DNA of 64,000 nucleotides from Pseudomonadota bacterium (GCA_043797085.1 JAZDQA010000013.1:224001-288000); one strand, 5' to 3'. Shown: positions 41,546 to 59,641, counted from the stretch's first letter. A program made the numbers and translations. Notes: generated from the letters alone by a model not told the origin.

Positions 41546-42307
41546 ATGAAGTATCAATGGTTAGGATTATGGGTCCTTACAGCATCGCTGTACGCTTCTC
41601 CCCAATGTTACACGCAAGGCTATGGCGACCTCATCACTTCTGTCAACGAAACGTCCCTGATCCTCAAAGATGGTACTCAATTGCCATACCATACCGACAG
41701 CGCAAAGACATCATGGGATGAAAAAATCAACAATGCTGATTTAGAAATGCAGCTTTCACAAGCCTACGATGCCGGCGGAATAGAGACACCACCGCCCTAT
41801 CTCTTTGATCCGGGACGTTTACGCTATCAGCCTTTTTTCCAAGCTCTCTACGGCAAAGATAAAAAAGCCATCGAAAAAAATCTTGTCACGATCCAATGGC
41901 CAACACTCAAAGGTTCCGTAAAACTCCCCGTCAACAAAGTGGGAGAAGTGGATAAAAAACTTTATGCAATCGGTCAAGAGATCGCAAAACTTCCTAAAAA
42001 AGATCGGATTTGGGCAGAGGGCGCAACGACTTATTGTTATCGCGTTATCAAAGACACTGACCGACTCTCCATGCACAGCTTTGGTATCGCCATCGACTTG
42101 GCCCCAGCCACTACCCAATACTGGAAAGACGAAGCTCCTAACGAGACCGATAAAATCGGTTATAAAAATACCATGCCTATGTCTATCGTTCGCATTTTTG
42201 AAAAATATGGCTTTATTTGGGGTGGGCGCTGGTACCACTACGATACGATGCATTTCGAATATCGTCCTGAACTCTTCGCCCCCACATGTGCTACAAAGGG
42301 TATATAA
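41546..42307 (+). CDS. M15 family metallopeptidase (peptidoglycan peptidase)
   Basis: Signal peptide; SMHSFGIAID (SxHxxGxAxD); WGGRW; DTMHFEY. Confidence 0.9.
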   Translation: MKYQWLGLWVLTASLYASPQCYTQGYGDLITSVNETSLILKDGTQLPYHTDSAKTSWDEKINNADLEMQLSQAYDAGGIETPPPYLFDPGRLRYQPFFQALYGKDKKAIEKNLVTIQWPTLKGSVKLPVNKVGEVDKKLYAIGQEIAKLPKKDRIWAEGATTYCYRVIKDTDRLSMHSFGIAIDLAPATTQYWKDEAPNETDKIGYKNTMPMSIVRIFEKYGFIWGGRWYHYDTMHFEYRPELFAPTCATKGI

Positions 42308-42310
42308 ATT

Positions 42311-43642
42311 TTAGCAGCTGGTGCATGTAATCGTTTGGTTACGCCCTTGATGTTTGGCCGCGTAAAGCGCTTGATCTGCTCGTTCAATCACCATACTCAA
42401 AGCATCTTCTGTATTGACACGGGTTATCCCGATACTGCACGTGATGTGTCCTGCTTGATTAAAAATATACGCTTCAACAGCGAGACGAATTTTTTCAGCC
42501 GCGACGTATGCTTGATCACAATCCGTATGTTGCAACAAAACGACAAATTCTTCCCCGCCCCATCGGGCAAAGACGTCTGCCTCTCGAATCAACCCTGTGA
42601 CAATCGAGCTAAACGTCTTAAGGACATAATCGCCGATATTATGCCCATAGGTGTCATTGACTTTTTTGAAATCATCCAAATCCAGCATTAAAAGCGATAA
42701 GTCAATATTGTACCGTTTTGATGTTGCCAATTCTTTGTCGAAAAGTTCTGCAAACATATGCCGATTATTGATCGAGGTAAGAGAATCTTTGGTTGCCAAA
42801 GTGGTTAAATGTTTATTTTTTTGTTGAAGGATTTGGTTCAGTTCTTCAAATTTATCGTAATGCGTATTCAGCAACTGTGACCACTTTAAATACGTTCGAG
42901 AGATAAGATCTTGCTGTGTCACGATACCAATAATAATCCCATTCTCTACAACAACAATCCTCTTATAATGATGACTTTTAAAGAAATCAAGGGCATCACT
43001 GATCGTAGCTGTTGAGAGCATTGTTTCCAATGGTGAAGACATCACCTCTCCAGCGGTAATACTGGAACAATGATCATCATCGATAAATTTCAAAATATCT
43101 TTGGAGGTAACAATTCCAACAGGAAGACTTTTATCTTGGATAATGACACAATCAGAAAGAGCATCTTTCATGTATTCCAAAACATTATCCATGTTTTCCG
43201 AACAATCAAAGCTTTTAAATCCAAATTTTTTATCGAAAATAGTTCCAAGCTGCAAACTTTCCAAAACGACCTGAGGATCGACACTTGCCACAATATCACT
43301 GTTGGTAACCAACCCATATAATGAGCCATCCTCATTGCAAACACAAATATACTCACCTGTTTTGTCCGTCATATTAAGAGCATTAATAACATTACTCTCT
43401 TTGCTTAAACGCGGAAGTGTATGCAATGAAATTTTTGATAGCGGTGTCGAAAAATCAATTTTTTCTACTTTTAAACGAATCAAATCCTTCGAAGTAATGA
43501 TGTGATGAAGGGGTCCATTCACGACGACAATACTTCGATGCTCATGCTCGTGCATCTTTCTTAAGGCGTCGTTAATGGTATCGTTGATATCGGCACAGAT
43601 AACATCCGTGGAAGCAATCAATTCAAGGGTGGGGAAAAACAT
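42311..43642 (-). CDS. Diguanylate cyclase with four CBS domains
   Basis: Repeated GIVT/IITxxD CBS units; READ-x5-GGEEF. Confidence 0.92.
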   Translation of the reverse strand: MFFPTLELIASTDVICADINDTINDALRKMHEHEHRSIVVVNGPLHHIITSKDLIRLKVEKIDFSTPLSKISLHTLPRLSKESNVINALNMTDKTGEYICVCNEDGSLYGLVTNSDIVASVDPQVVLESLQLGTIFDKKFGFKSFDCSENMDNVLEYMKDALSDCVIIQDKSLPVGIVTSKDILKFIDDDHCSSITAGEVMSSPLETMLSTATISDALDFFKSHHYKRIVVVENGIIIGIVTQQDLISRTYLKWSQLLNTHYDKFEELNQILQQKNKHLTTLATKDSLTSINNRHMFAELFDKELATSKRYNIDLSLLMLDLDDFKKVNDTYGHNIGDYVLKTFSSIVTGLIREADVFARWGGEEFVVLLQHTDCDQAYVAAEKIRLAVEAYIFNQAGHITCSIGITRVNTEDALSMVIERADQALYAAKHQGRNQTITCTSC

Positions 43643-43727
43643 ACGGTAAACTCCTCTATATGTTTTATTATACCCCCAATTTTCATAAAAAACTAACTTT
43701 TCTCTAACTAAAGAAGGAAGATTCTAT

Positions 43728-44078
43728 CTATCGCCTAATCAAAAATTCAATCACTTTTTCAACTGGACGCCCGATCAGCGCTCGATTATTCTCAATGAGA
43801 ATTGGTCTTTCGATTAATTTAGGGTACTCCGCTAGGGCGTCAATAAGTTTTGATTCCTCTGTTACTTCCGCAAGTCCCAACTCTTTATACAGATCTTCTT
43901 TTGTCCGCATAAGCTCCCGCGCCGATATTCCAAGCTTTTGCAAAAGGTCCGTGATCTCTTGTCGGGAAGGTGTTGTTTCCAGATATTTAACTACTTCATA
44001 GGAAAGCCCCTTCTCTTCGAGGAGTTTGAGGGCTTCACGCGATTTCGAACATTTTGGATTGTGCCAAATGGTTATCAT
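43728..44078 (-). CDS. arsC: Arsenate reductase (glutaredoxin-type ArsC family)
   Basis: Motifs HNPKCSKSR, LIERP, IGRP. Start reassigned to ATG 44078. Confidence 0.85.
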   Translation of the reverse strand: MITIWHNPKCSKSREALKLLEEKGLSYEVVKYLETTPSRQEITDLLQKLGISARELMRTKEDLYKELGLAEVTEESKLIDALAEYPKLIERPILIENNRALIGRPVEKVIEFLIRR

Positions 44079-44144
44079 GGTGTCTCTCTTTTTTATCAAC
44101 ATTATAACGCAACGCATTAAGGCTCTCTTGTGGAAGTATCTATC

Positions 44145-46223
44145 TTACCATTTCCCCTCAATCGATAAAACCACCTGTGGTTTTGTATGCTCTTTATCCA
44201 CCTGAGTCTGCGTAATCGCTCCTGCTGCATCGTACAGACGTGAAGTTGTCTCTACCGTAGAAGCCGTGATATTTTTCACGTTAAACTGTAATTTAAACGT
44301 TTTATTGAGCCGTTTATTGGCATAGAAATCGAGTGTGCCGTACCCTTTTTGCGATTGGGATATGAAATACTCCTGCGGATCATCGTATCCACCGACGTAG
44401 CGATAAGCGGCTCCGTAGGTGATTTCAGAGCCTTTTAGCGTGTGATCAAAACCGAGGTTACAGGTAAAATTCGGTGTTTGTAAAAGCTCTCTTTTGACTC
44501 CGGTTAGAGTGTTCGTAATCGATGAGTCTTGCAGCGTTGCATTGGCAAAAATTCCGAACCCTGTGATGTACTCTTTGAGTGATTTTTTAACCTCTAATTC
44601 AAGACCCCACAACGATCCCTCTCCAGCATTTTCAGGGGTTTGTTCATAGCGTCCCGATACGGAGTTAAAACGGATCGCATTTTCGATTTTATCATTGATG
44701 GTTCGATAAAACCCGCCGATACTCGCTAAGCCTTTATCCTCAAAAAAATGTTCGTACCGAAGCTCATAACTCAACGCTTTCTCTTCGTTCAAATTCGGAT
44801 TTCCGATCACATCGGGGCGATGGATGCTGTTTTCATCGAGGGTGCTGTTGGTACTCGCCGATAGTTGGCTGAGTCTTGGGAGACGGACGGTTTTAGCAAC
44901 ACTTGCACGGATATTGTCTTTTGGTGTCACCTGAAACAGTGCGTGCAGAGAGGGCGCGAAGTAACCCAGATTCGACGTTGCACCATAGTCTCTCTCTAAT
45001 GTTTCATAACGAAGACCCGGGGTAATGACGATCCCCTCATTCAGTGTATATTCGTCTTGGATATAGAGGGCGAGCTTGTCCTCTTTCATCTGAATTTTAT
45101 CGTTCACAGAAGTGACATCTACCCCGTTTAACACCCGTGTCGTTTCATCGATTTGATCGCTTCTTTTGAGTTCAAATCCGGCTTTGATAAAGTGATCCTC
45201 TCGAAGTGCGGAATAATCTCCTTGAAGTCCGTAAAACCGACTCAATACATAATCGTGATTTTTTCGGTTGTTAGCAGATGGGGTCGATAATGACTCCAAA
45301 TCGGCACTCTCTTCAAACGAATGGATTTTTGCCTTCCATTCAAAAATATCATCACCAAATCGGTGCTCCGCCCCCAATGCCGACCAAAGCATCGTATTGG
45401 TAGCATCGTCGTAACTTTGGTAACGACTTGTCGGAGTGGCTGAGCCTTCGGTTAGCGTCGTTGAATTAATCCTATCAGTATCATGATTAAACGTCACAGA
45501 GCCGTCATAGAGTATTTTAAGGCGTGAAGAGGGGGTGAAGTTCAGTTTTCCACGCAGTCCTACGGAGCGATTTTTGCTTTTATCGTCACGCTTCTCATTG
45601 GTATTTAATGCTATTTTATCGGTAAAAATATCCGTCCGATCTACTTTACGGTTTTCAGACGCGGTAAGGTTTGCCAAATACGAAATTTTATCGATTTTCC
45701 CTTCTCGTTGAACATACGCGGTTTCACTCAAATCCTCACCGTAGGCACCAACGGTTACTTTTGCTAACATTCGCCCCTCTGCCTTTGGTTTTTTGAGAAC
45801 GACGTTGACGATCCCCCCCATCGATTCGGCAGTGTACTCTGCCGAACCGTTGGTCATCACCTCGATGCGCTCGATCATGTCGGGTGAAATCTGCTCTAAC
45901 GGACTAGCACGCTTACTCGTACCCGTCGAAGTCGCCTCACCGTCGATCATTACCACCGTGTATCCCTTACCCGGTGCACTAGCGGGTCCTTTGCCATTTG
46001 GAATCGTTACCCCAGGGGTGCGTCGGAGAATCTCTAACGCATTCGAATCCCCATACTGAGTCAATTCCTCTGCTTTGATAATCCGTTTGGCGATGGAATT
46101 ATCCCGTCGCTCATCGATAGCGGAATACTCTTCGGCGACTTGGATTTTTTCTAACGTCACAATCTCTTGCGCACACACACTGCTAATCATAGCGGTAGAT
46201 GCAAGTATAATTCGATAATTCAC
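44145..46223 (-). CDS. TonB-dependent receptor
   Basis: Plug motifs RRTPGVT and IERIEV...GGIVN; GNPNLNEE; C-terminal GKW. Likely GTG start at 46223. Confidence 0.93.
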   Translation of the reverse strand: MNYRIILASTAMISSVCAQEIVTLEKIQVAEEYSAIDERRDNSIAKRIIKAEELTQYGDSNALEILRRTPGVTIPNGKGPASAPGKGYTVVMIDGEATSTGTSKRASPLEQISPDMIERIEVMTNGSAEYTAESMGGIVNVVLKKPKAEGRMLAKVTVGAYGEDLSETAYVQREGKIDKISYLANLTASENRKVDRTDIFTDKIALNTNEKRDDKSKNRSVGLRGKLNFTPSSRLKILYDGSVTFNHDTDRINSTTLTEGSATPTSRYQSYDDATNTMLWSALGAEHRFGDDIFEWKAKIHSFEESADLESLSTPSANNRKNHDYVLSRFYGLQGDYSALREDHFIKAGFELKRSDQIDETTRVLNGVDVTSVNDKIQMKEDKLALYIQDEYTLNEGIVITPGLRYETLERDYGATSNLGYFAPSLHALFQVTPKDNIRASVAKTVRLPRLSQLSASTNSTLDENSIHRPDVIGNPNLNEEKALSYELRYEHFFEDKGLASIGGFYRTINDKIENAIRFNSVSGRYEQTPENAGEGSLWGLELEVKKSLKEYITGFGIFANATLQDSSITNTLTGVKRELLQTPNFTCNLGFDHTLKGSEITYGAAYRYVGGYDDPQEYFISQSQKGYGTLDFYANKRLNKTFKLQFNVKNITASTVETTSRLYDAAGAITQTQVDKEHTKPQVVLSIEGKW

Positions 46224-46236
46224 AATAGGTTCCTGC

Positions 46237-46626
46237 TTATTTTTGTTTGTCGGTGACAATATAGAGCTGTTCATGCCCTAGACGTTTAAGAACGTCCATC
46301 ACTCCAACAAAATTTTGAAATGCTGCATCTTTATCGCTGTAAAGTACAACTGTCATCTCTTTACCACCAGCCACTACACGCTGTTCAAACTCTGCCAAAG
46401 TGATCGGAGTTTTTGCCTCATCCAACATTAGAATCCCGTCTTTTCGGATAGTCAGTTTAAGTTCTGAGGGTTTATGCTCTGCAGCTGTCCCTTTGGCATC
46501 AGGCAACTCAACAGGGATTAATCCGGTACGAATAAATGTCGCCGTCGTCAATACCATGACCAAAAGAACCAGCATAATGTCGATAAAAGGAATGACGTTA
46601 ATGGAATCAACCCGTTTCATTTTCAT
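46237..46626 (-). CDS. exbD: Biopolymer transport protein ExbD
   Basis: Motifs INVIPFIDIMLVLL, VELP, SDKDA. Confidence 0.95.
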   Translation of the reverse strand: MKMKRVDSINVIPFIDIMLVLLVMVLTTATFIRTGLIPVELPDAKGTAAEHKPSELKLTIRKDGILMLDEAKTPITLAEFEQRVVAGGKEMTVVLYSDKDAAFQNFVGVMDVLKRLGHEQLYIVTDKQK

Positions 46627-46629
46627 AGG

Positions 46630-47082
46630 TTACCCTCGATTTTTATGGGCGCTAATGTCCCATTGTGTCAAAAGTCGTTCCATTTTTCGAAGCAAAATAT
46701 TGTAAAAAATGATAGCAGGGATAGCAACCACCAGCCCCATCGCCGTAGCTTTGAGCGCCAATGCCAATCCGGTCATAATCTTCTTCGGATCAACCGCACC
46801 AACATCACCGAGGCTGTAAAACGTAATCATAATCCCCAATACCGTCCCAAGCAGTCCCACATAAGGAGCATTGGAACCGATAGTCGCAATCGTACTGACG
46901 TTATTACCTAAATCAAGCTCCAACTCCTCTTTGGTCTCGTAATCATGGATACGTACCGACCCATACGCCATCATTCTCTCGATAAAAAGCGAGAGTGAGG
47001 CAACACTCATTAACACCAAAATCCCGATAATTCCATAATCAATCGCCGCGTGTGCGAATTCCAACATGTTGCTATTTTCCAT
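46630..47082 (-). CDS. exbB: Biopolymer transport protein ExbB (short Campylobacterota type)
   Basis: Motifs TIGSNAPYVGLLGTV and ALKATAMGLVVAIP. Confidence 0.95.
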   Translation of the reverse strand: MENSNMLEFAHAAIDYGIIGILVLMSVASLSLFIERMMAYGSVRIHDYETKEELELDLGNNVSTIATIGSNAPYVGLLGTVLGIMITFYSLGDVGAVDPKKIMTGLALALKATAMGLVVAIPAIIFYNILLRKMERLLTQWDISAHKNRG

Positions 47083-48262
47083 TTTTTTCTCCCTGTGTGG
47101 TTAATTTTAACGCTTTTCTTCTCTTCTTTTTAAGCCACAATAGTGTTCCGGTAATCATCAAGATTATCGTCACAATGCCCGAAGCAAAAATCATCAAACG
47201 ACCTGTCATTCCCAAGGCTTCACCATTATGCAAAGGAAACTGCCAATTAATAAACGATTGTCCTGAAGATACTTTTAACGGATCTTTCACATAAAGGACT
47301 TTCCCACTATACTGATCGATCCATATTGTTGTTTGCCCTTTTGTTTTTCGGACTTCACCCTCTTGGCGTTTGTAAACTTTATACGTATCTTCAGCATCTA
47401 TAGGCAAGCTGATATGACTCAATACTGCATTTGGAAAAGTACTATTTGCAATTTTCACCGCATCTTCGATAGTGATAGCCTTAGTCTCCAATAGCGTGTG
47501 CGTCGAGGTTAAATCTTTGGGTGTTTTTTCCAGCGGAGAAAAAACTTTTACTACAGGTTTGATGTATTCGGGAAAAATCAAATAGACTCCCGTGAACGTA
47601 ACGACTACGAGGATGATTGCAGTGTAAATACCGCTAACACGATGCAAGTCCAAATTAAATCGAACCGAATTTCCATCATGCTTGAGCTTTAGAGCGCGTT
47701 TGAATTTGCCATTTCTTGGCCACCATAAATAAATACCGCTTAGGACAACGATAAGCCACGCAATCCCCGAAAGCCCAACGATTGTTCGACCGGTTCCTCC
47801 CAAAAGAAGAGATGAGTGCAGTTCATAAATAGTTTTAATCAGATGCGCTCCGTCAACGCCGTACGTGCTACGGTCACGTTTTCCCAAAACTTCTGCCGTA
47901 TAAGGGTTTACCATCACTTGAAACCAATCAAATCCGCCGCAGCATTTAGGCATGCCTGCCTCAGGATGCTCTTTAGGCGTTTTAAACAACACCAAACAAA
48001 CACTCTCTTTCTCTTTAGGAGGATAGATCAAAGCAGCAGGTTTATCCGGATACGCCATTTTAGCCGAAGCCAAAATTTCAGACATCGATTTTCGGTGTCC
48101 ATCTCCATAATCGCTCACGGTAAATAGTTCAGGATTAATCATCTCATCCAATGCATCGTCAAAAACAATCACACTTCCAGTAATACCAACAACGAGAAAA
48201 ATTATCCCTAAAAATAAACTCAAGTAAAGATGAATCTTCACAAAAATACTTCGTACACTCAT
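47072..48262 (-). CDS. PepSY-associated TM helix protein (FoxB/PiuB-like)
   Basis: Motifs IHLYLSL, VNPYTAEVLG, ELH, SGIYLWWP, DLHRVSG, IDQYSG, PLHNG. Confidence 0.9.
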   Translation of the reverse strand: MSVRSIFVKIHLYLSLFLGIIFLVVGITGSVIVFDDALDEMINPELFTVSDYGDGHRKSMSEILASAKMAYPDKPAALIYPPKEKESVCLVLFKTPKEHPEAGMPKCCGGFDWFQVMVNPYTAEVLGKRDRSTYGVDGAHLIKTIYELHSSLLLGGTGRTIVGLSGIAWLIVVLSGIYLWWPRNGKFKRALKLKHDGNSVRFNLDLHRVSGIYTAIILVVVTFTGVYLIFPEYIKPVVKVFSPLEKTPKDLTSTHTLLETKAITIEDAVKIANSTFPNAVLSHISLPIDAEDTYKVYKRQEGEVRKTKGQTTIWIDQYSGKVLYVKDPLKVSSGQSFINWQFPLHNGEALGMTGRLMIFASGIVTIILMITGTLLWLKKKRRKALKLTTQGEKNGK

Positions 48263-48293
48263 TTGAACCTCTTTTATCGATTATGTATATTTT

Positions 48294-49100
48294 TCAACTC
48301 TCTGATTCGCTCAAAAACGCATCACGAGCCAAAACGGCTGCACCGTAGGATGTTGTAATTTGCGGAAATTCAGGGACAAAAATTTTGTGTCCTAGTTCAT
48401 TTTCTATCGCGCTTACAAGCCCACCATTTAATGCCGGTCCTCCGTCAAAGTAGACATTTTCTTTGACCCCGACTCGCTTCACGAGTTTCACGATCCGTTT
48501 GGCAATCGAATAATGAACTCCCGAAACGATGTCTTCCACGCTGTGACCATTACCTAAAAGTCCTATGATTTCAGACTCAGCAAAAACCGCACACGTACTG
48601 CTGATCGAAAGCGGTGTCCCTTTGGATTGAAAATGAAAATCGCCAAGTTCATCCACTCCGATTTCCAAATTCATCGCGACCACATCGAGAAATTTTCCCG
48701 TTCCTGCCGCGCATCGGTCATTCATTGCAAAATTGACTACATTTCCCTCAGCATCCAGTGAAATCGCCTTGCTGTCTTGTCCGCCGATGTTAATGATGGT
48801 TTTTATCTCTCCATACTCTTTGGCTGCTTGTTGCGCACCGATGGCATTGGCGGTAATTTCACTGATGTTTTCATCCGCCTCTTTAAAAAGTTTACGCCCA
48901 TATCCTGTAGCTACCGTATAGACCACCTCACTCTCATCAATACCTAACTCTTTTAACAGCTCCGCCAACGCCTCTTGTGCGTATTTGTAAAACATACTCC
49001 CACTCGCGCTGATTTTATGCCCGACTAAATTTTTATTTTCATCTGCAACACTAATCTTGATTGCGGTAGAGCCGATGTCGATACCTACAAAATATTTCAT
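48294..49100 (-). CDS. ATP-dependent [4Fe-4S] activator (HgdC/BadF-type archerase; DCCP-R-like)
   Basis: Motifs GIDIGST, TGYGR, IGGQDSK, MNDRCAAGTGKF, SSTCAVFAESE. Confidence 0.95.
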   Translation of the reverse strand: MKYFVGIDIGSTAIKISVADENKNLVGHKISASGSMFYKYAQEALAELLKELGIDESEVVYTVATGYGRKLFKEADENISEITANAIGAQQAAKEYGEIKTIINIGGQDSKAISLDAEGNVVNFAMNDRCAAGTGKFLDVVAMNLEIGVDELGDFHFQSKGTPLSISSTCAVFAESEIIGLLGNGHSVEDIVSGVHYSIAKRIVKLVKRVGVKENVYFDGGPALNGGLVSAIENELGHKIFVPEFPQITTSYGAAVLARDAFLSESES

Positions 49101-50368
49101 TTTTTCATTCTCTTTCGATTTTTTAATGACTCGATAAATGCTTCAACCCGTGTGGTAAGCTGTCCTTGTTGCGATGGGCTGTACTCGCTCTCGATGTAGA
49201 GGATCGGGATACCCTCTCGCTCCATCGCGGCCAAAACACTGCGCTGTTCCATCTCATACACTTGACACCCTGCAAATGCTTGGTAGATCACCCCATCACC
49301 GTTATAACTGCGAACCAATTGGATGATTCTGCGGATTCGGTCGTCGTTTTGGGTAAATATCGGGCAGGTACACGCTTTGAGATATTTATCCGAAACCGAA
49401 TCGATCATGTCGTAGAGATTCCACTCATCCACTGCCACCATATCGTTAAACATACGGTTCGAGCTGCACGTCTCATCGGCGACGATGATGGCATCGCTCT
49501 CTTCGATAATGAGGGGGATTTTATAGTTGGGGAAAATCGGTGGGGAACCTGTATAAACGATTCTCGGGCTTGCTTTTCCTGCCACATTGATACCTTCAAT
49601 TACCCGTTGTTCCAACTCTGCGACCAGTTTCTCAACAGCACTTATCCATTCGTCTATCTTGTCAAAAAAGAATGCGTTGGTAACCAAAAACATATCGACA
49701 CCCAAGATAGGGACAATTTTATTTTTTCGAAAATCGGTAAGTTTATGATAAAGCGATTGTGCATATCCGACCTTTTTAATCGCACTCTCCAGATTGGTTC
49801 GTGTCAACTTTTTACCTTGAAACTTCGAGAGTTCAACGGCAAAATGTTTGACACTTTCGCGCCAATAATGGCGGCTCTCTTCACTCTCTTTGGTTCGTGG
49901 AAATCCAACATCGATAATCGTATGTCCCAAATTCTCGATGATCGCACCCGCTTTGGTTTTTTGATCGCACGTCGTCGGTGAAAAGGTAATATCTGGCTTA
50001 TCGGTAAAATTATCCGATGCGAACAATCCCACCGTCGCTTTAACCAGCGGACACGATTTGGAAGGCATCAAATCACTTCCGATTTCATCGTCGGTATAAA
50101 ATCCGTTGCACAGTCGAATCGGCACACCATCAAGGGCATAAATGATTTCAGAAGGGATTTGGATACACATCGTCCCGATTTTTGTTTTCCCTTCATGCAG
50201 AGGTTCGTGATGACAATAGACTTTTTCAAACAAATCGTAAAAATAATCCATACTCTTGATTGGGGATTTAAAATCCTCTTTCAACGCATTAATAACATGG
50301 ATCGCCTCCATCGCTTTATGGCGATTTTGTCTCTCTTTTGCTGTTTCTATTGTATGTTCAGTGTTCAT
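49097..50368 (-). CDS. 2-hydroxyacyl-CoA dehydratase-family protein, probable double-cubane-cluster reductase (DCCP/YjiM-like)
   Basis: Cys motifs GTMC, RLC, SCP, TTCD, DETC, CTCP and GC; C-terminal QLTTRVEAFIE. Start reassigned to ATG 50368 (AAAGGA RBS). Confidence 0.85.
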   Translation of the reverse strand: MNTEHTIETAKERQNRHKAMEAIHVINALKEDFKSPIKSMDYFYDLFEKVYCHHEPLHEGKTKIGTMCIQIPSEIIYALDGVPIRLCNGFYTDDEIGSDLMPSKSCPLVKATVGLFASDNFTDKPDITFSPTTCDQKTKAGAIIENLGHTIIDVGFPRTKESEESRHYWRESVKHFAVELSKFQGKKLTRTNLESAIKKVGYAQSLYHKLTDFRKNKIVPILGVDMFLVTNAFFFDKIDEWISAVEKLVAELEQRVIEGINVAGKASPRIVYTGSPPIFPNYKIPLIIEESDAIIVADETCSSNRMFNDMVAVDEWNLYDMIDSVSDKYLKACTCPIFTQNDDRIRRIIQLVRSYNGDGVIYQAFAGCQVYEMEQRSVLAAMEREGIPILYIESEYSPSQQGQLTTRVEAFIESLKNRKRMKK

Positions 50369-51371
50369 TATTATCCTTTCTCTGATCCATCGCCATACGC
50401 ACAAGAAAGCCTTCTTTGGTCGATTCGAAAATAGTGGCTCCCATAAAATTAGCCTCCAAACATCCCTCTTCAGGACACGCTGCGATACATTTGAGACAAA
50501 GGGTACAATCTTCAGTAACTAAATTTTTGCTCGTCACATCATCGGCGATTTCGAGAATGTCCATATCACACGCATGATAGCAATCCCCGCATTTGGTACA
50601 TTTAGCTCCATCTTTATAAAGCTTCAATAAGGCGGGTTTGGAAAAAATATATTGCAATGCCGCCATCGGGCAAAAGTAGCAAAAAAACCGTTTTTTGACA
50701 AACGACCCCACTAAAAACAGTCCTGTTATAATCATCCCTAGTGCCGTCATAACCATATCTGTCTTCGACGAAAAATCAATGTAGAACTGATTAAAATGAC
50801 CTGTAAATGCCGGAATCATCATCCGTCCGGGACAAATATCGCAAAATGGCATTGAGAGCCCATTGGGAAGTTTCGGAAGACCAAATACCGAGTTGGCAAT
50901 CATCACGGGGAGCAAGAGCAAAAGAATTAAAAGAATGTATTTGATACTTTTGATTTTTCCACGATTCGCCCATGAGTATTCACTGTAACGGATTCTGGAT
51001 TTTTCACGCAACATCGTGAGCCAGTCTTGCATCGTCCCAAGAGGGCACACAAATCCACACCACCCTTTGTTCAACACCCAAAACCACACCATAAACATCC
51101 CAAGGGATATGAGAAAAGCGTATCCGGCAAATCCCATAAACATATCAATCGGATGTTTCAAATCATGTTGAAGTTCCCCCACATAACACTTTCCGCCCGT
51201 CCCTTCTCCGTTAAATACACACGCAAAAGTAGGAAGCTTATCGCCCAAATCGAGTCCGACATATCCGCCGTACACCATTAGAACAAACGCAACGATCTGA
51301 AACCAAAACCGAAACCGCACGAGGTTCATATTATTGACTGCACGACGGAGACTAAATTTATTCTTCGTCAA
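50358..51371 (-). CDS. Membrane-bound polyferredoxin (NapH/MauN family)
   Basis: Motifs WCGFVCPLG, FCDICP, FCYFCP, and two CxxCxxCxxxC; several TM helices. Confidence 0.92.
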   Translation of the reverse strand: MTKNKFSLRRAVNNMNLVRFRFWFQIVAFVLMVYGGYVGLDLGDKLPTFACVFNGEGTGGKCYVGELQHDLKHPIDMFMGFAGYAFLISLGMFMVWFWVLNKGWCGFVCPLGTMQDWLTMLREKSRIRYSEYSWANRGKIKSIKYILLILLLLLPVMIANSVFGLPKLPNGLSMPFCDICPGRMMIPAFTGHFNQFYIDFSSKTDMVMTALGMIITGLFLVGSFVKKRFFCYFCPMAALQYIFSKPALLKLYKDGAKCTKCGDCYHACDMDILEIADDVTSKNLVTEDCTLCLKCIAACPEEGCLEANFMGATIFESTKEGFLVRMAMDQRKDNNEH

Positions 51372-52311
51372 AATAGATCTCCTTGGGCGTTTTGCGCTTG
51401 CGTCGTCGGTTGTAATAAAGCCCCAGCGAAAAGACCAACATCACCCCAATAGCGGTTGCGAAGCCTAATACTTTTGATTCGTATTCCAGCGGAGATGCAC
51501 CAAAGGAGAGAGGCAAAGTCATTACATAATGAACAGCATGATATTTTTCTGTGCCGTAGATTCCCGATTCATTCACATCGTATGACGCTTCAACAATCAT
51601 CTTTTCGGAACGCTTTTTTTCTTTTTCGGTTGCCGCATAGGTACTGCGCGGAATCTCAAATGAGGTCATCCCCTCTTCATCGGGTTGAATCGTGGCATTC
51701 CAGCCGCTCTCCATGCTCACTTTTAACGGAACATCTTTTTGTACTACCCCTTTATAATAAATCGTGAAAGGGGCAATATCACCCGAATACAAACAACAGT
51801 TAATATGGTGTTTTCGAATCGGTTTCTCCATAATCAACTCAAACGGAAGCTGTGCGAGAGGTTCATGATCGTAATGGGAATCGTTCGTTTTCCCACGGAT
51901 CTCTTTAAGTAGCGTTTGAGAGATATTCCCCTCTTTGTTATGAATTCTTACCGATGAAAGATTTACATGAAGGACACCATCTTGAACGGATTTTTGTTCA
52001 AAATAAAGACGATAGCCCCCTTTGTGTACCGGAGTAAAAGAAATTTTCCCTCCCGACACATCCAGCTTTGTTACCGCATGATCCATATCGCGAACATAGA
52101 CAACCGTATTATTTAAATCACGGACTTTTTTATTCTCATCGAATGTCCCTTTTTTGATGAAAAATTCTTTGGCTTCTACTGTTTTATCCCCTGCCTTGCA
52201 ACACGATTTTTTCTTGGATTCATCCATCCATACAAAATCATCCCCAAAAAGAGGCAATGACCCATACGTGATCGCAATGACCAAAAATGTTTTTGATAGG
52301 ATCGATTTCAT
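51358..52311 (-). CDS. Periplasmic membrane-anchored protein, DUF4198/NikM-like, Cys-Cys rich
   Basis: Signal peptide; PFELI...GD...YKG...DEEG..SF pattern; KSCCK and HHINCC; C-terminal TM helix plus RRRKRK. Confidence 0.6.
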   Translation of the reverse strand: MKSILSKTFLVIAITYGSLPLFGDDFVWMDESKKKSCCKAGDKTVEAKEFFIKKGTFDENKKVRDLNNTVVYVRDMDHAVTKLDVSGGKISFTPVHKGGYRLYFEQKSVQDGVLHVNLSSVRIHNKEGNISQTLLKEIRGKTNDSHYDHEPLAQLPFELIMEKPIRKHHINCCLYSGDIAPFTIYYKGVVQKDVPLKVSMESGWNATIQPDEEGMTSFEIPRSTYAATEKEKKRSEKMIVEASYDVNESGIYGTEKYHAVHYVMTLPLSFGASPLEYESKVLGFATAIGVMLVFSLGLYYNRRRKRKTPKEIYFDEE

Positions 52312-52313
52312 AA

Positions 52314-54590
52314 TTAAAAATTTGCCGATAAATTAATCGTTACACCACGCCCTGGCATACGATAGTATTCATAATACTCTTTATCCAATAGGTTATCTAT
52401 CATCACGCTGGCTTTTATATTTTTGTTGATTTTATAATCTGCTTTCAAGTCAACAACTGTATATTTACTATAACCTGTCCATATACCCTTAACTATATCC
52501 GAATTGTCATTGCTGTTAAATACTTCTCCTACATAACGACCTGAAAGTGCTCCTGAATAATCTCCATATTGAGCTAAGAATGCCAAAGTTGCCGTATCTT
52601 TAGGGACATTGGTTACCCGCTTTCCTTCCATCCCCGTATTGGTATTATCTTTGGTAATTTTAGAATCCGTATACGAGTAGCTCCCACGCACTTCCAACCA
52701 ATTTACTAAAGGATATTCTCCTGAGAGTTCAATCCCTTTTGCCAACGCTTCTCCAGTATTTTCCTGTTTAGCAATATAATCAACCACTTTGTTGATGATT
52801 GGATCGGTATATTGAGGTACTTTGGTAATTTTTTGATAAATCAAATCGGTTGTCTTGGTTACAAAACACGTAGCCATTACCTTTCCGCCATCCACAAAGT
52901 GATATTCAACTCCAAGATCAAACGCTTTTGCTTTCTCAGGCTTCAAATCCGGATTTGAATAAATCATCTTTCCATTGGGTGCTGCGTTACCTGAAAAAGT
53001 AGGATTAGCAAAAAGATAATAGTTTGTCGGCGCACGGAATCCTGTCCCTACCGAACTTTTAATCGACGTTCGATCATTGACCATATAAACAGCGGCGATT
53101 TTTGGGCTAAATGATGATTCCTTGCGATCTGAATACACAGTCGTCCCCGGAACAGAGCCTGTGGTCACAACACCTACCCCACCCGCTTTCCACATATCAT
53201 ATCGCCCACCTACGTACAACAATAGATCATCATTAACCGCAATTTGGTCTTGAAGAAAAATTGAGTTCGTAATACTTCTAGCATCAATCCGATCCAGCTC
53301 CGCCGTTTTGGTATCCATATTCGTCCAATCCGAAACCGCGTATTTTTTCTGATGAAGACGCCCAACTTCCGTCGCAACACCCGTAATCAATAAATGGCTA
53401 TCACCAATAGGAGTAGTCAGCTGTGCTGAAGCATTGGTTGTACTATTAGGTGAATTACTAAGCGTCCCAGCACCAGAGGTCAATGTTGCCGTTGCACCAA
53501 TAGCAGAGCTCCAATACTCACGATCAATTTTCCCAAAATTGAGACTCAACTTACTGTCTCCCAATTTTCCATCATATCCAGCAAAATAGCGCAATGCAGT
53601 ATTACCCATCGGAACAGAACCGGCAAAATCTTGTTCTTTAATCGTAGTCGCTTTGCCGTTTAGATTTAGGCTTGTTGCCGTTGTCCCTATTGCGATTGGA
53701 TTCCCACTTGTATCAGTCAAATAACTATTGTATCCACGATTCAGACTCTTTGCATCGGAATAAGCGAAACCTGCATTCACGGTTGAAGTTGGAGAGAGAT
53801 CATAATAGAGTTTCGCATGAATATTTTTCTCCATAGAGGCATTAGTTCCCTTATCCCCGACAATATAAGTAGTTGCTCCCGCCGTTGTGGTGGTTTGTGT
53901 CGCACCATTAACAACAACAGCACTACCAGCAGGTGTCCCAGTAGGTGTTTTGGTTACATACTCGGCGATATATCCTTCACGATAGTTTTCAGAGACTCCA
54001 AATACAACCCCAAGACCATTTTTGAATTTATTGCGGTACAACGCACTTGCATGATCTCCCGATGCATCACCAAAACCTTTGCCAACATTAAACGACATTT
54101 CCTCTTTCGTCGGTGCTTTGGTCGTAATACTAATAACTCCACCTACTGCGTTACTACCGTATAATGAGGAACCAACCCCCGGCACTACCTCAATACGATC
54201 CACATCATCCATTGTAACCATAGACCAGTTAACTTGACCCGAATAGGCATCGACCATATTCATCCCATCTACCAAGACTGCCATCTTGGTCAATGTTCCC
54301 CCTGCACCTCGCATAACAAGATATCCTGTTGCACCAGGTCTAGAATTACCCAATGCTCCTCCTCGCAGATAAAGCCCAGGGACTTTAGCATTTAACGCAT
54401 CCCCTATACGCGGTGTGTTCATTTTTTCCATATCTTCAGCCGTTACTACTGAAACATTCACTGGAGCTTCCAATGTTGATTGCTCAATTTTTGATGCACT
54501 TATAGACACATCCCCCAAATTAACCGTTTCAGTAGCATAGGCGCTACTGCAAAATATAACTGCCGCCATTGATAGCTTAACTACTTGCAT
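52314..54590 (-). CDS. TonB-dependent receptor
   Basis: TonB-box-like VNLGDVSISASK; DRIEVVPG..SSLYGSNAVGGVI; GFRAP; NPDLKPE; terminal F. Start ATG 54590 with AAGG RBS. Confidence 0.95.
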   Translation of the reverse strand: MQVVKLSMAAVIFCSSAYATETVNLGDVSISASKIEQSTLEAPVNVSVVTAEDMEKMNTPRIGDALNAKVPGLYLRGGALGNSRPGATGYLVMRGAGGTLTKMAVLVDGMNMVDAYSGQVNWSMVTMDDVDRIEVVPGVGSSLYGSNAVGGVISITTKAPTKEEMSFNVGKGFGDASGDHASALYRNKFKNGLGVVFGVSENYREGYIAEYVTKTPTGTPAGSAVVVNGATQTTTTAGATTYIVGDKGTNASMEKNIHAKLYYDLSPTSTVNAGFAYSDAKSLNRGYNSYLTDTSGNPIAIGTTATSLNLNGKATTIKEQDFAGSVPMGNTALRYFAGYDGKLGDSKLSLNFGKIDREYWSSAIGATATLTSGAGTLSNSPNSTTNASAQLTTPIGDSHLLITGVATEVGRLHQKKYAVSDWTNMDTKTAELDRIDARSITNSIFLQDQIAVNDDLLLYVGGRYDMWKAGGVGVVTTGSVPGTTVYSDRKESSFSPKIAAVYMVNDRTSIKSSVGTGFRAPTNYYLFANPTFSGNAAPNGKMIYSNPDLKPEKAKAFDLGVEYHFVDGGKVMATCFVTKTTDLIYQKITKVPQYTDPIINKVVDYIAKQENTGEALAKGIELSGEYPLVNWLEVRGSYSYTDSKITKDNTNTGMEGKRVTNVPKDTATLAFLAQYGDYSGALSGRYVGEVFNSNDNSDIVKGIWTGYSKYTVVDLKADYKINKNIKASVMIDNLLDKEYYEYYRMPGRGVTINLSANF

Positions 54591-54632
54591 TAATATCCTT
54601 GTATTAAATAAATCCAAGAATTATTTCAAAGT

Positions 54633-54673
54633 AGTGTTACATTTGTGTTAAGTCTTAACAGTAATGTAACACT
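54633..54673. promoter_or_regulatory. 41-bp palindromic operator between divergent TonB-system transcription units
   Basis: AGTGTTACATT-tg-TGTTAAG-t-CTTAACA-gt-AATGTAACACT. Confidence 0.75.
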
Positions 54674-54719
54674 TTTCTTTCATACTTACACAAATAAATC
54701 TTAGTAAGAAGCTATTTTA

Positions 54720-55373
54720 ATGATGCAATCGTTACCTCTTTTTTCATTGTTTCTTATTGCATTATCCTATGGTGCAACGGCATGTATGCTCTCGTGTATG
54801 CCTATCCTTTCCCCGATTCTTTTAGCCAACAGCGCCACACGCCAAGAAAGCCTTCGAGTCCTTATCCCCATCACCGCAGGTCGCATTAGCGGTTATACAC
54901 TCTTAGCAGTTATTGCCTTCACAGGAGCAGTCTTTGTCCAATCACTGCTCAAAGATAAAACCTTAATGGGCTATGTTTTAGGAGCTGTAACCCTGCTGCT
55001 TGCACTCAAACAACTGCTCGCCATTCGGACAAAACAAACCTGTTGCGCTCAAACCACACAACCCAGCAAAAGCACCAATACCACCCTTTTTGCGACGGGA
55101 CTTCTTCTATCGATGTCCATTTGCGCACCCGTTGCTACCATGATGACACTCAGTGCAACCGCTCCCTCATTGGGCTGGGCAGCTTTATACGGATTGTTTT
55201 TCGGGCTGGGAGCTACGCTGTTGTGGTTTTTCTTTTTTTCCGTTGTTCTAACAACCGCACTCAAAGAAAGCCTTAATCACCTATCACGCTATCGACGCAC
55301 CATTGAAATAATGGCTCCGATTTTATTGGCGTGTGTCGGAATTTTAATTTTTAATGGATGGATACGACTATGA
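54720..55373 (+). CDS. DsbD_2/CcdA/UreH-like membrane protein
   Basis: Motifs ACMLSCMP, GRISGY, SICAP, FFGLG; about 6 TM helices. Confidence 0.8.
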   Translation: MMQSLPLFSLFLIALSYGATACMLSCMPILSPILLANSATRQESLRVLIPITAGRISGYTLLAVIAFTGAVFVQSLLKDKTLMGYVLGAVTLLLALKQLLAIRTKQTCCAQTTQPSKSTNTTLFATGLLLSMSICAPVATMMTLSATAPSLGWAALYGLFFGLGATLLWFFFFSVVLTTALKESLNHLSRYRRTIEIMAPILLACVGILIFNGWIRL

Positions 55374-56074
55374 CTATAACCATGACCCCTCAGACCAAAG
55401 CTTTTGGACTCTCCTTCGCGTTGCACACCTTAATGGCGCTTCTTGCGATGTTAGCACTTACGCGGATGTACCATCCTGTTAATCTGGATGTTATCCCAAT
55501 GAAACATGTCACTCTTGTGACACTATCTCATGTGACTCCAATGCCCATACAACCCACAATCACACCGCCAACCACAACAATCACACAACCCGCTCCCACA
55601 CAGCCCATCACAAAACCAATCGTGCCTACCAAAACCCAACCTATTGTGACTCAAACAATACCTGTACCCTCCATTCCTGCTGTCGTACATCAAGCTATAC
55701 CTACAGAAACAAAACCTGTTGTAGTCGCGGAAACAAAAGCTATACCTGTTCAAGCCGTCATTCCCTCAAAACCAAAAATCGATACAACCTCTGAAAAAAA
55801 ATTGTTCTATGCCTCATTACGTACAAAAATCCAACAAAACCTTCGCTATCCGTTTGCCGCAAGACGTGTAGGGAAAGAGGGAGAAGTTGGTGTTCGCTTC
55901 ACACTTTCTGATGATGGTTCAATCCGTAATATCTCAGTTCAACGCGGTGAAGAAATTTTTCATAACGCCGCCAAAGCAGCCGTTGCATCAACCGCCGGTA
56001 TCGATATTCCTAAAAATCTTATCGACTCTCTGCCAGTAGAGATGGATTTAACCCTCGAATTTAAGCTTAACTAA
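55370..56074 (+). CDS. tonB: Energy transducer TonB
   Basis: TM helix with SxxxH (SFALH), Pro/Thr-rich linker, YP..ARR.G.EG.V.V.F. Start uncertain (55358-55382). Confidence 0.88.
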   Translation: MTITMTPQTKAFGLSFALHTLMALLAMLALTRMYHPVNLDVIPMKHVTLVTLSHVTPMPIQPTITPPTTTITQPAPTQPITKPIVPTKTQPIVTQTIPVPSIPAVVHQAIPTETKPVVVAETKAIPVQAVIPSKPKIDTTSEKKLFYASLRTKIQQNLRYPFAARRVGKEGEVGVRFTLSDDGSIRNISVQRGEEIFHNAAKAAVASTAGIDIPKNLIDSLPVEMDLTLEFKLN

Positions 56075-56150
56075 TATACTATTTAATTATTTTAATTATA
56101 ATACTAGTGTATTCTATTAAAATACTATCTTGCAAAATTGGAGAAACAAA

Positions 56151-56534
56151 ATGTCCAAAAAAACATTTTTAAAAATAAGTGCATTGATTGCACTTGCGGT
56201 AACGATCCCTCAAAGTTTTGCGCAAGCAAACGGTGAATCTCTTTTTGAACAAAAATGCGCCATGTGCCATTTGAAACAAAGACCCTCAGCCGATGAGATG
56301 AAAAATATGATTGCGCCCCCGATGATGGGTGTTATGCGCCACGTCAAACAAGCAAAAACAAACCGCACTGAAGCAATCGCATTTATCGCCGACTATCTCT
56401 TTGCTCCGTCCCAAAAAAGTGCCGTTTGTCTTCCTGAGTCGATTGCAAGATTTGGCGTCATGCCCTCACAAAAAGACAATCTTACAAAAGAAGAGGCGCA
56501 AACGGTTTCTGCCTATATTTACGATACTTTTTGA
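56151..56534 (+). CDS. Monoheme cytochrome c
   Basis: GGAG RBS, signal peptide, CAMCH, APPM, FGVMP. Confidence 0.9.
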   Translation: MSKKTFLKISALIALAVTIPQSFAQANGESLFEQKCAMCHLKQRPSADEMKNMIAPPMMGVMRHVKQAKTNRTEAIAFIADYLFAPSQKSAVCLPESIARFGVMPSQKDNLTKEEAQTVSAYIYDTF

Positions 56535-56682
56535 GCGGATCGTAATCCGTTTGACTGATGGTACACACCTAATTATAATGTGAAACACTATTTCTATATC
56601 CATCCTAACTACAAGCAAATTTTAGTTGACTTTATGCTACGATATTAATTATTTGAATAAATCTAGTCATTGAGGATTTTGT

Positions 56683-57669
56683 GTGTACCTAAGATTTCTA
56701 TCCTTTTTTTTCGTCGCTTTGACCTCATCGATGTATGCCGATGGCTATGAGTTTGGTCATGGGTACACACTCAACGACTCGTTAACGGTCGGCGGCTACA
56801 TCTCTTCTGAATTTGACTCCAACAAACAAACGGAAAAATTAACAATCGATGATGTCGCGATGATGGCATACGGTAATGTTGGATCGAATTTTTCTTATTT
56901 AGCCGAAATGGAAGCGATAGGCTTTTATTATAAAAATCTTACCGATGGCAATGAAGGTGGAAGTCAAAAATTTCATGTTGAACGGTTATATGGTGATATT
57001 TGGGTATCAGATGACTTTAATTTTCGTGTGGGAAAACAAATAGCCCCCATAGGGTATTGGAATCTTGAACCGATCAATGTTCTGCGAGACACCACGTCAA
57101 ATCCTCTCTACAGTATGCTTTTATTCCCCAAATTTTTAACCGGTATCAATATGAACGGCTATCTTGGCGATACAACCCGCTATCACCTCTTCGGTCAAAT
57201 AACCCATGATCTGGATGAAGAATATATCAACATCCCCAATACCCATTTTTACGGTTTATCCCTAGAACATGAACTCTCAACGGACACAAATTTTGGTGGA
57301 AGCATCGGAGAGTTTATCGCATTGGCGACCGATGAAAAAACACAATTCATCCAAGGAAATCTAAAAAGCGACAACGGCACTCTTTTTCTAAGCGTAGAAG
57401 CAATCGCCGCCAAAACCGACTATCACCATACCAAAAACGATTTTACCCTCAGCGGATACATCCAAAGTGTTTACCATTTTTCCAACGAACATGCCCTCGT
57501 AGGACGATATGAATATTATAATGACCAACATCGTGATTATAAAGACCATATCGGTATTTTAGGATACAGCTACCGTCCCATCTATCCCATCTCCCTCAAA
57601 GGGGAATACCAATGGCACTCGCAACACGATGAAAATCGTGCACTTTTTTCATTCTCGGTACTCTTCTGA
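56683..57669 (+). CDS. Putative outer-membrane porin-like beta-barrel
   Basis: GAGGA RBS plus GTG start, signal peptide, VERLY..., RVGKQIAPIGYWN, alternating C-terminal strand ending in F. Confidence 0.7.
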   Translation: MYLRFLSFFFVALTSSMYADGYEFGHGYTLNDSLTVGGYISSEFDSNKQTEKLTIDDVAMMAYGNVGSNFSYLAEMEAIGFYYKNLTDGNEGGSQKFHVERLYGDIWVSDDFNFRVGKQIAPIGYWNLEPINVLRDTTSNPLYSMLLFPKFLTGINMNGYLGDTTRYHLFGQITHDLDEEYINIPNTHFYGLSLEHELSTDTNFGGSIGEFIALATDEKTQFIQGNLKSDNGTLFLSVEAIAAKTDYHHTKNDFTLSGYIQSVYHFSNEHALVGRYEYYNDQHRDYKDHIGILGYSYRPIYPISLKGEYQWHSQHDENRALFSFSVLF

Positions 57670-58070
57670 TGAAAAATCTATTGATAATTAGCCTGCTATG
57701 CGGAAGTTTATCAGCATCTGAGTATAGCGTTATTATTTCTAAAAAAATTTCTGTGATCGAAACATCTTCGCAACAGATACGAGATCTTTACCTCATGAAA
57801 CGTCACACCATCGGGAATCAAAAGATTATCCCTCTTAATCTACTAGGACAAGACGCTTCTCGAATCGCATTTGAAAATGAGATACTAAAAATGGATCGAG
57901 ACCGACTTAATACCTATTGGATAAAACAACATTTCCAAGGGATCACCCCTCCTGTTACGCAACCTTCTCACGAATCCATCAAAGCATTCGTCCAAAACGT
58001 CGAGGGTGCTATCGGCTACATCCCCTCATATATGGTCGATTCAAACGTAAAGGTGATTTATGAGTTTTAA
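57669..58070 (+). CDS. Small periplasmic protein resembling a phosphate-ABC substrate-binding-type domain
   Basis: Signal peptide; pattern IRDLYL...YWIKQHFQG..PP...FVQNVEGAIGYI. Confidence 0.7.
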   Translation: MKNLLIISLLCGSLSASEYSVIISKKISVIETSSQQIRDLYLMKRHTIGNQKIIPLNLLGQDASRIAFENEILKMDRDRLNTYWIKQHFQGITPPVTQPSHESIKAFVQNVEGAIGYIPSYMVDSNVKVIYEF

Positions 58071-59574: not shown

Positions 59575-59598
59575 TTCCTAAAACACTAAGCCTCTGTA

Positions 59599-59607
59599 TG
59601 GTATAAT
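59599..59607 (+). promoter_or_regulatory. Extended -10 promoter of leuC
   Basis: TGGTATAAT, followed by AAAGG RBS and ATG 59642. Confidence 0.6.
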
Positions 59608-59641
59608 CGCGCCATTATTTACACCTTAAAAGGTCATTATT

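Follow-up and report, generated by a model that had tools for sequence, protein, structure and literature searches.

We consider here a locus of eleven genes in a 64,000-nucleotide stretch of DNA from a bacterium deposited as Pseudomonadota (GCA_043797085.1, JAZDQA010000013.1:224001-288000; the whole stretch is referred to below as the window), in which genes for TonB-dependent uptake are run together with those for a double-cubane cluster protein (DCCP) and a DCCP-R-type ATPase. Profile searches with the window proteins found every gene where a preliminary description, made from the sequence alone, had placed it, and in the families given there: a minus-strand run, with internal gaps of -38 to +31 nt, and a CcdA/UreH-like gene (here listed under its DsbD_2 family) and tonB transcribed divergently from it. 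The features, with the standing that each has across related loci (see below), are as follows.

44145..46274 (-): second TonB-dependent receptor (TBDR2); family match; accessory
46237..47082 (-): exbB-exbD energiser; family matches; frequent
47072..48262 (-): PepSY-TM (FoxB-like) membrane protein; PepSY_TM; accessory
48294..49100 (-): ASKHA [4Fe-4S] ATPase (archerase/DCCP-R); PF01869 and TIGR00241 above cut-off; core
49097..50368 (-): DCCP of a receptor-linked subfamily, 423 aa; HGD-D family, seven-Cys motif; core
50358..51371 (-): NapH/CcoG-type polyferredoxin, four transmembrane helices; Fer4_5/Fer4 families; core; predicted DCCP partner
51358..52311 (-): DUF4198-fold periplasmic protein, 317 aa; fold match; C-terminal membrane anchor, HHINCC motif; core
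52314..54587 (-): TonB-dependent receptor 1 (TBDR1); plug and barrel families; core; variable receptor type
54635..54651 (-): TTAACA-N5-TTAACA-type direct repeat before TBDR1, adjoining a -10-like hexamer downstream; best position weight matrix (PWM) site of the genome
54655..54671 (+): the same repeat again, upstream of the divergent dsbD_2-tonB unit; from sequence and PWM
54720..55373 (+): DsbD_2-family protein, six transmembrane helices; PF13386; four invariant Cys; core, though divergent at the window locus
55358..56074 (+): tonB; PF03544

Judged by ribosome-binding sites, the likelier start of TBDR1 is at 54587 and that of TBDR2 is a GTG at 46223. The guanine-plus-cytosine (GC) content is 0.43 for the locus and 0.41 for the genome. 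Among the best 80 of 209 genome matches, the closest named relatives are Sulfuricurvum genomes, with DCCPs of 86-96% identity; contigs of relatives join across the PepSY gene.

A conserved uptake and redox cassette

The gene set recurs, as a cassette, in other genomes. From the best 80 matches in Campylobacterota we dropped 28 without full flanks; among the 52 full-context loci that remained, the polyferredoxin and the 317-aa family are present in all 52, the ATPase and the DsbD_2 protein in 50 each, and a TonB-dependent receptor (TBDR) in 49. A metagenome scan seeded by the periplasmic protein alone returned 44 loci, mostly of GC 0.50-0.67; with 17 short ones set aside, the 27 long loci hold the polyferredoxin (27), a TBDR (26), the DCCP (25), the ATPase (25), and the DsbD_2 protein (25) in unchanged gene order. 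Recurrence in one order both in Campylobacterota and on metagenome contigs of high GC shows that chance does not account for the gene set, and the association of the reductase pair with TBDRs (49/52 and 26/27 loci) that the preliminary description had proposed is borne out. The core consists of the receptor, the DUF4198-fold protein, the polyferredoxin, the DCCP, the ATPase, and the DsbD_2 protein. Less constant in the 52 loci are exbB (33), exbD (32), tonB (27), and a resistance-nodulation-division (RND) pump (19). The PepSY-TM protein, which at the window locus matches the FoxB structure 7abw (E 3.5e-32) and through which ferric-chelate reduction had entered the original account of the system, proves to be accessory: it occurs at 1/52 full-context loci (2/80 of all loci) and at 4/44 metagenome loci, there at 26-29% identity, and that part of the account is not retained.

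The cassette is patchily distributed, occurring in 12/151 genomes at the level of the order and in 13/63 at that of the genus. Relatives of the high-GC DCCPs, taken as proteins irrespective of their gene context, carry names from Sideroxydans, Gallionella, Sulfuricella, Sulfuritalea, Sulfurisoma, Quatrionicoccus, Paramagnetospirillum, Bacteroidota, and Desulfuromonadaceae. Carriage of the cassette on a phage or plasmid was rejected, a search giving no viral match and one plasmid-labelled record. Receptors and periplasmic proteins diverge much more than the redox core, the receptors forming at least five divergent groups, as expected of ligand-specific front ends. TBDR2 orthologs of more than 50% identity occur at 11/80 loci, all in Sulfuricurvum, and on high-GC contigs distant (~23%) second receptors follow the cassette.

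Several loci depart from the full arrangement. Modules of receptor, DUF4198-like protein, and polyferredoxin that lack a DCCP of their own are often found beside a full cassette (L005, L008, L009, L039, L373, L277, L279, L282, L286, L291), and at two of them (L277, L279) there is no DCCP within 10 kb; such modules may share one DCCP-ATPase pair. The DCCP has no adjacent ATPase at L012 and L013, the genome of the former having a second, complete cassette (L020), and L053 comprises two tandem cassettes with one common ATPase. In several genomes (L016, L115/L162, L161, L274, L288) the cassette receptor is split into two frames, with the redox core intact.

The double-cubane protein, its predicted partner, and the other core proteins

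In searches of the PDB, the window DCCP scored 223 bits with the DCCP of Carboxydothermus hydrogenoformans (7yyl/6eno), compared with 73 for BzdN and 50 for HadC, and its model superposes on 7yzm/6eno with a TM-score of 0.80-0.82, retaining N-terminal helices like those of class I DCCP. Its motif cysteines (68, 87, 106, 134, 301, 335, and 368) align to those of DCCP and are invariant in 81/81 sequences; a seven-Cys motif with six cluster ligands defines DCCPs (PMC7317905). The published seven-Cys regular expression has no literal match in the protein; taken as distances between residues it does match, except that one spacing is 28 and not 29-30. Comparison of 49097-50368 with DCCP and dehydratase profiles, as the preliminary description had suggested, gave 324.6 bits with the DCCP model NCBIfam NF040772 (cut-off 350) and 26-82 bits, far under the cut-offs, with HadB, HadC, BzdN, and BzdO. 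Subfamily members score 315-367 with NF040772, two of six passing (359 and 367), and canonical Campylobacterota DCCPs 455-479 (5/5 passing). In two trees, both built by a quick method and including one long outgroup sequence (L155), 26 and 22 cassette-linked DCCPs form a separate clade far from the canonical ones (SH-aLRT 100 and 99). The genome has a single HGD-D gene, and thus no second HGD-D subunit. On sequence grounds, then, the window protein is a member of a DCCP sister subfamily and not a CoA-ester dehydratase, in keeping with its original assignment.

The adjacent ATPase keeps its cluster cysteines C130 and C170 in 101/101 sequences, and matches HadI (4eht, E 6e-62) and DCCP-R (7yyl_E, E 7e-40). 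The pair resembles DCCP and DCCP-R of C. hydrogenoformans (6ENO, 7YYL, 7YZM) in fold, seven-Cys motif, N-terminal helical extension, and adjacent ASKHA [4Fe-4S] ATPase, but the two DCCPs share ~30% identity, and the cassette DCCP has a further cysteine, Cys333, together with a DxxxVDEW loop that is fixed. The gene contexts differ as well: the cassette adds genes for a receptor, for a periplasmic protein, and for two redox proteins of the membrane, whereas among 12 canonical DCCP loci, chosen by hand from 19, none carries a cassette neighbour other than the ATPase. Read from open reading frame starts, canonical DCCP-ATPase pairs at L147 and L149 (genomes G105 and G033) lie beside selD-like and SirA/YedF-like genes, which fits the selenium genes shown next to DCCP in a figure legend of PMC10418091.

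A prediction of the complex between the DCCP and the polyferredoxin scored 0.67, compared with 0.00 for the best of three controls; the mark applied was reached by 116/157 solved and 2/215 mismatched pairs, counts that are only a rough guide with our own alignments. At least 87% of contacts are shared between runs, and the partner pLDDT is 79 or more. The interface sets DCCP residues 308-332, which lie between the ligands Cys301 and Cys335 and next to Cys301, against the polyferredoxin cluster residues 255-267 and 298-300. Within this loop D314, E315, and W316 hardly vary (97-100% fixed) among 110 subfamily members, 80 from Campylobacterota and 30 from metagenomes, and are variable in the 12 canonical DCCPs; identity to the canonical proteins is 0.14 at the interface versus 0.30 overall. 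We found no comparable solved complex, the polyferredoxin profile giving only two weak ferredoxin-domain matches in the PDB. The model supports binding of the DCCP to the polyferredoxin [4Fe-4S] domain through a subfamily-specific loop, and lends direct computational support to the membrane electron wire postulated in the preliminary description. DCCP-R binds DCCP at the C-terminal helix (PMC9351452), outside the docking interface, so that a chain from ATPase to DCCP to polyferredoxin would be possible. There is a precedent in BzdNO of class I benzoyl-CoA reductase (8S02), where the double cubane of BzdN serves as an electron relay, storing ATP-energised electrons and passing them to a partner (PMC11971306); however, that partner is a soluble paralog that binds the CoA ester, whereas the cassette has no paralog and the predicted partner is a membrane polyferredoxin.

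For the polyferredoxin, a simple hydropathy and positive-inside estimate predicts four helices. It places CxxxCP, CxxCP, and the two [4Fe-4S] motifs on the inner side and C51, C62, H69, C177, and C180 on the outer; all these Cys/His are kept in 115-118 of 118 sequences. Polyferredoxins of the CcoG, NapH, and NosH types have the same four-helix Fer4_5 layout, CxxxCP motifs, and two [4Fe-4S] clusters. The cassette protein differs from these in scoring far under the NapH cut-off (69 of 234 bits), in extra periplasm-side Cys/His, and in its predicted binding of a DCCP. The DsbD_2 protein keeps C22, C26, C108/109, and C135 in 67/67 sequences; no solved relative of it was found.

The 317-aa protein has no Pfam or NCBIfam match of its own, and its homologs give weak PF10670 matches, one over the cut-off. 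Foldseek matched its AF2 model (pLDDT 76.8) to Zcp (9mhl, E 2.5e-8, TM-score 0.64 by target length) and to a Ni-bound DUF4198 protein (9gcb, E 1.1e-6), so that the earlier label "DUF4198-like" stands. Zcp is a metal-binding member of the DUF4198 proteins, a group for which binding of Zn, Co, Ni, and Cu and a link to Zn and Fe starvation are documented (PMC12663993). The two proteins share a fold. The cassette protein carries a signal peptide, and it differs from Zcp in being anchored to the membrane at its C-terminus and, set against the three-His metal site of Zcp, in an HHINCC (HHxNCC) motif seen by alignment. Forty relatives are fused to a second Fer4_5 domain, and NosL is also present in three of eight fusions scanned.

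TBDR1 is 19-37% identical to most cassette TBDRs, and 62-71% identical to those of its own type in six high-GC contigs. Its plug is Met-rich: Met92, 109, 111, 123, and 126 are kept in 11-12 of 15 aligned receptors, and residues 51-180 contain nine Met, compared with 1-6 in nine other TBDRs of the genome. The CxxxM plug motif of OprC is absent from TBDR1, TBDR2, and the cassette receptors, and is present at G000:C13:37082-39112 of the same genome.

An upstream repeat and its copper-associated genes

With 23 of the 80 loci dropped for lack of a usable upstream region, TTAACA-N5-TTAACA (at most one mismatch) stands ahead of 49/57 cassettes, compared with 0-4 for other spacers and 0.4 for shuffles. 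The divergent spacer of the window holds two repeats back to back, while one-directional loci retain only the direct repeat, right before a -10-like hexamer. A direct repeat just before the -10 is the layout typical of an OmpR-type activator site; the OmpR-type regulators adjoining cassettes are a mixed set, with no named family above cut-off.

The second-best site in the genome lies ahead of an OprC-like receptor with a GACPNRMD plug motif. Across the order, the repeat precedes 26/29 OprC-like genes (shuffles 0.2) and 11/26 PCuAC genes, one of 30 OprC and one of 27 PCuAC loci having been dropped for want of upstream DNA; cassettes and genes for receptors like the copper receptor OprC (NosA) share a promoter repeat, and the cassette receptors lack the CxxxM motif of OprC. 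The repeat was found ahead of none of 30 feoB genes, 20 hand-picked CusA-type operons, or 23 CopA-type loci, nor before eight other TBDRs of the window genome or before PCuAC in the nine f11 genomes tested. Five complete genomes contain 30 exact sites, compared with 5 for a reversed control, including OprC (three), NosL (two), a PCuAC-SCO operon, DsbD_2-ccoN, and cassette promoters, plus unrelated genes. A refined pattern, derived from the same loci, gives 37 sites versus 0 for the control in five genomes of the genus (6 versus 0 in the window genome), ahead of OprC, cassettes, a DsbD_2 gene, pmm, and a cytochrome-bd-like pair with c-type haem motifs, and, reversed, ~100 nt before ccoN; the reversed repeat precedes ccoN in 5/6 genomes of the genus. 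Reversed repeats at ccoN together with a repeat at the bd-like pair would be a copper-sparing pattern. TTAACA-N5-TTAACA appears to mark a candidate Campylobacterota regulon that is apparently undescribed, and our literature searches, including the excerpts of PMC9449129, returned no binding site matching the repeat.

Genes seen behind the repeat are those for OprC-like receptors (e.g., G000:C13:37020-39112), PCuAC-SCO, NosL, DsbD_2, DUF4405, EF-hand, and DUF1104 proteins, and some OmpR-type regulators. It is kept before a phosphomannomutase gene throughout the genus (G000:C7:18256; L345, L352, L353, L371). The cytochrome-bd-like pair (L372:3870-6586; 4/151 genomes) consists of two membrane subunits with one CxxCH each, followed by a thioredoxin and a CcoG-like gene; it lies behind the repeat in several genomes and beside the cassette in G151, and is possibly a copper-free oxidase.

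Several other readings of the upstream region were discarded. The window spacer and the genome's nikR gene had suggested the NikR palindrome GTGTTA-N16-TAACAC, and hence nickel, but one-directional loci keep the direct repeat only, the palindrome being the product of back-to-back repeats at divergent promoters, and the receptor beside nikR lacks the repeat. A CrdRS-type copper-excess regulon does not agree with the zero counts at CusA-type (0/20) and CopA-type (0/23) loci. No riboswitch or other RNA exceeded the gathering score in 42000-60000, and a generic promoter and terminator scan did no better than shuffles. Among the high-GC copies, L278, L286, L291, and L293 have paired GCGACA-N4-TGTCGC-like sites upstream of the first receptor, and L276, L277, L310, and L314 have sigma-54-like promoters and a divergent enhancer-binding protein, seemingly without a receiver domain.

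Neighbouring genes and genome content bear on the same question. An OprC-motif TBDR adjoins 8/80 loci; the 44 metagenome loci include six with a 14-Cys Csp1-like copper store (5fjd, E 2e-20) and four with PCuAC; and an OprC-like gene is present in 11/12 cassette genomes, compared with 76/151 overall. Through the shared regulon repeat and these copper-protein neighbours, the cassette points to copper, whereas the preliminary description had named no particular metal. A dedicated N2O-reductase accessory role was rejected, as nosZ occurs in 5/12 cassette genomes versus 55/151 overall and was not found in the window genome, which is 95.9% complete. By coordinates, OprC-like genes stand directly before ccoN in G043 and G026, and directly before nosZ in G138 and G150.

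Outside the cassette, an arsC-like gene (43728-44117, minus strand), a neighbour at genus level, begins 27 nt past TBDR2, and on the 3' side of tonB, at 56130-59574 on the plus strand, are genes for a mono-haem cytochrome c, a beta-barrel protein, a small periplasmic protein, and an HD-GYP-type signalling protein.

A proposed outward electron wire for copper, and its alternatives

We propose, with moderate confidence, that the cassette encodes an ATP-driven outward electron wire, induced by copper lack, that frees copper from imported tight complexes. The TonB-dependent receptor would bring in copper in tightly bound form, either chelated or as a copper-sulfide/polysulfide cluster, and in the periplasm the membrane-anchored DUF4198-fold protein would hold it. 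In the cytoplasm, by analogy with established chemistry, the ATPase would spend ATP to drive very low-potential electrons into the double-cubane cluster, and the DCCP would pass them to the [4Fe-4S] domain of the docked polyferredoxin, whose Cys motifs, with the four-Cys DsbD_2 protein, would carry reducing power to the outer face. The complex would be reduced there, and Cu(I) handed to periplasmic chaperones (NosL, PCuAC, SCO, and Csp1) that would supply cbb3 oxidase and further copper enzymes. We infer that electrons are exported across the membrane, what the substrate is, and that the repeat's regulator senses copper lack.

A number of observations weigh against this proposal. Plain reduction of Cu(II) to Cu(I) requires no ATP-boosted reductant, so that the substrate would have to be much harder to reduce than free Cu(II). 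The docking model is silent on the direction of electron flow, and plug methionines are few (mostly 1-4) in the commonest cassette receptor type. Across the window genome the loose repeat shows no enrichment (30 sites versus 36 for the reversed control), only the refined pattern, itself derived from these loci, being enriched, and the repeat also precedes genes without a copper link (pmm, DUF4405, EF-hand, DUF1104, efflux, and metH). Order-wide it accompanies ccoN in only 2/30 (sense) and 3/30 (antisense) cases, and the cytochrome-bd-like gene in 2/4. The high-GC copies have another upstream motif, which resembles the RegA/RegR redox box (the pattern matches 10/44 loci) and would fit oxygen or redox control. 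Finally, the genomes are kin, so that the counts overstate independence.

A wire of the same build might serve another metal or cofactor (an iron chelate, Ni, Co, Zn, or a receptor-dependent mix), with the repeat belonging to an oxygen or redox regulator of microaerobic respiration and not to a sensor of copper lack, which we regard as possible though unlikely. The divergent receptor groups, the range of metals bound by DUF4198 proteins and their Zn and Fe starvation links (PMC12663993), the FoxB-like PepSY protein at the window locus, the RegA-like motif of the high-GC copies, the iron oxidisers and the magnetotactic strain among the carriers, and the repeats ahead of non-copper genes all speak for it. 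It sits poorly with the absence of the repeat at feoB and at the receptor beside nikR, with the failure of the NikR-palindrome reading, and with the copper-specific neighbours Csp1, PCuAC, NosL, and OprC, which appear independently in two lineages. The reductive chemistry might instead take place in the cytoplasm, with the imported copper species, or a small sulfur ligand from it, moved inward through the polyferredoxin and DsbD_2 protein and reduced at the double cubane, and with the polyferredoxin as CcoG-like cupric reductase and anchor. The related CcoG works as a cupric reductase on the cytoplasmic face (as cited in PMC8267372), the channels of DCCP are narrow and the protein reduces small molecules (PMC7317905), the model keeps class I-like N-terminal helices, and the predicted docking is compatible with this scheme too. 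We nevertheless think it rather improbable: the conserved cassette genes include no importer of the ABC or MFS type, the docking sets the partner's Fe-S cluster and not its Cys motifs against the DCCP loop, and the periplasm-side Cys/His of the polyferredoxin are as invariant as the cluster ligands.

The AcrB-type RND gene that adjoins 19/52 loci could mean that a chelator is synthesised or matured by the DCCP pair, exported by the pump, and re-imported by the receptor; with no RND gene at the window locus and no ortholog in its genome (best 23% identity), only 2/27 high-GC loci with such a gene, and no conserved biosynthetic genes, this is very improbable. An ordinary 2-hydroxyacyl-CoA dehydratase or benzoyl-CoA reductase module that merely lies beside an uptake locus is suggested by the Pfam HGD-D match, by database names, and by an ATPase nearer in sequence to HadI than to DCCP-R. 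We give this hardly any credence, given one subunit with seven motif Cys and no second in the genome, scores of 72 (HadC) and 82 (BzdN) versus 325 bits (DCCP), and receptor and membrane genes conserved alongside across lineages.

The system, assembled from known parts, appears to be new, and its logic recalls reductive siderophore unloading. FpvA-FpvG reportedly releases siderophore iron on this logic. FoxA-FoxB (7ABW) likewise combines TonB import, an inner-membrane reductase, and a periplasmic binding protein, and a FoxB-like gene is present in the window copy; however, PepSY is not part of the core (1/52), the core reductant is an ATP-driven Fe-S pair, and the regulon points to copper and not to iron. 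Open-access full text (our searches did not cover subscription papers or preprint supplements) yielded no description of the system, no pairing of a double cubane with TonB, and, among the papers listed for DCCP, none on uptake; the excerpts of PMC6769254 contain no matching system either. The natural function of double-cubane proteins is given as unknown in PMC7317905, PMC9351452, and PMC11971306, and the ATP-driven reductive systems tabulated in PMC7317905 all act on cytoplasmic substrates. If our proposal is correct, this chemistry would gain a new use, that of an ATP-driven reductase supplying a membrane wire to capture a nutrient. The cassette offers a named candidate partner, a mutable interface, copper lack as a candidate signal, and hosts in culture such as Sulfurovum mangrovi ST1-3, Sulfurovum sp. 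CS9, and Paramagnetospirillum magnetotacticum MS-1, and so makes the question of DCCP function directly testable.

Sulfide locks up copper in the habitats of sulfur oxidisers and denitrifiers. Tentatively, we suggest that the physiological role of this whole branch of DCCPs may be the ATP-powered export of very low-potential electrons, from ATPase through double cubane, polyferredoxin, and thiol relay to the periplasm, which would dissolve sulfide- or chelator-bound copper and help microaerophiles and denitrifiers to build their copper enzymes at sulfidic and ferruginous redox boundaries, with an undescribed copper-starvation regulon of Campylobacterota that TTAACA-N5-TTAACA would mark. If true, this would address how sulfur oxidisers and denitrifiers obtain sulfide-locked copper, and would bear on cbb3 respiration and N2O reduction.

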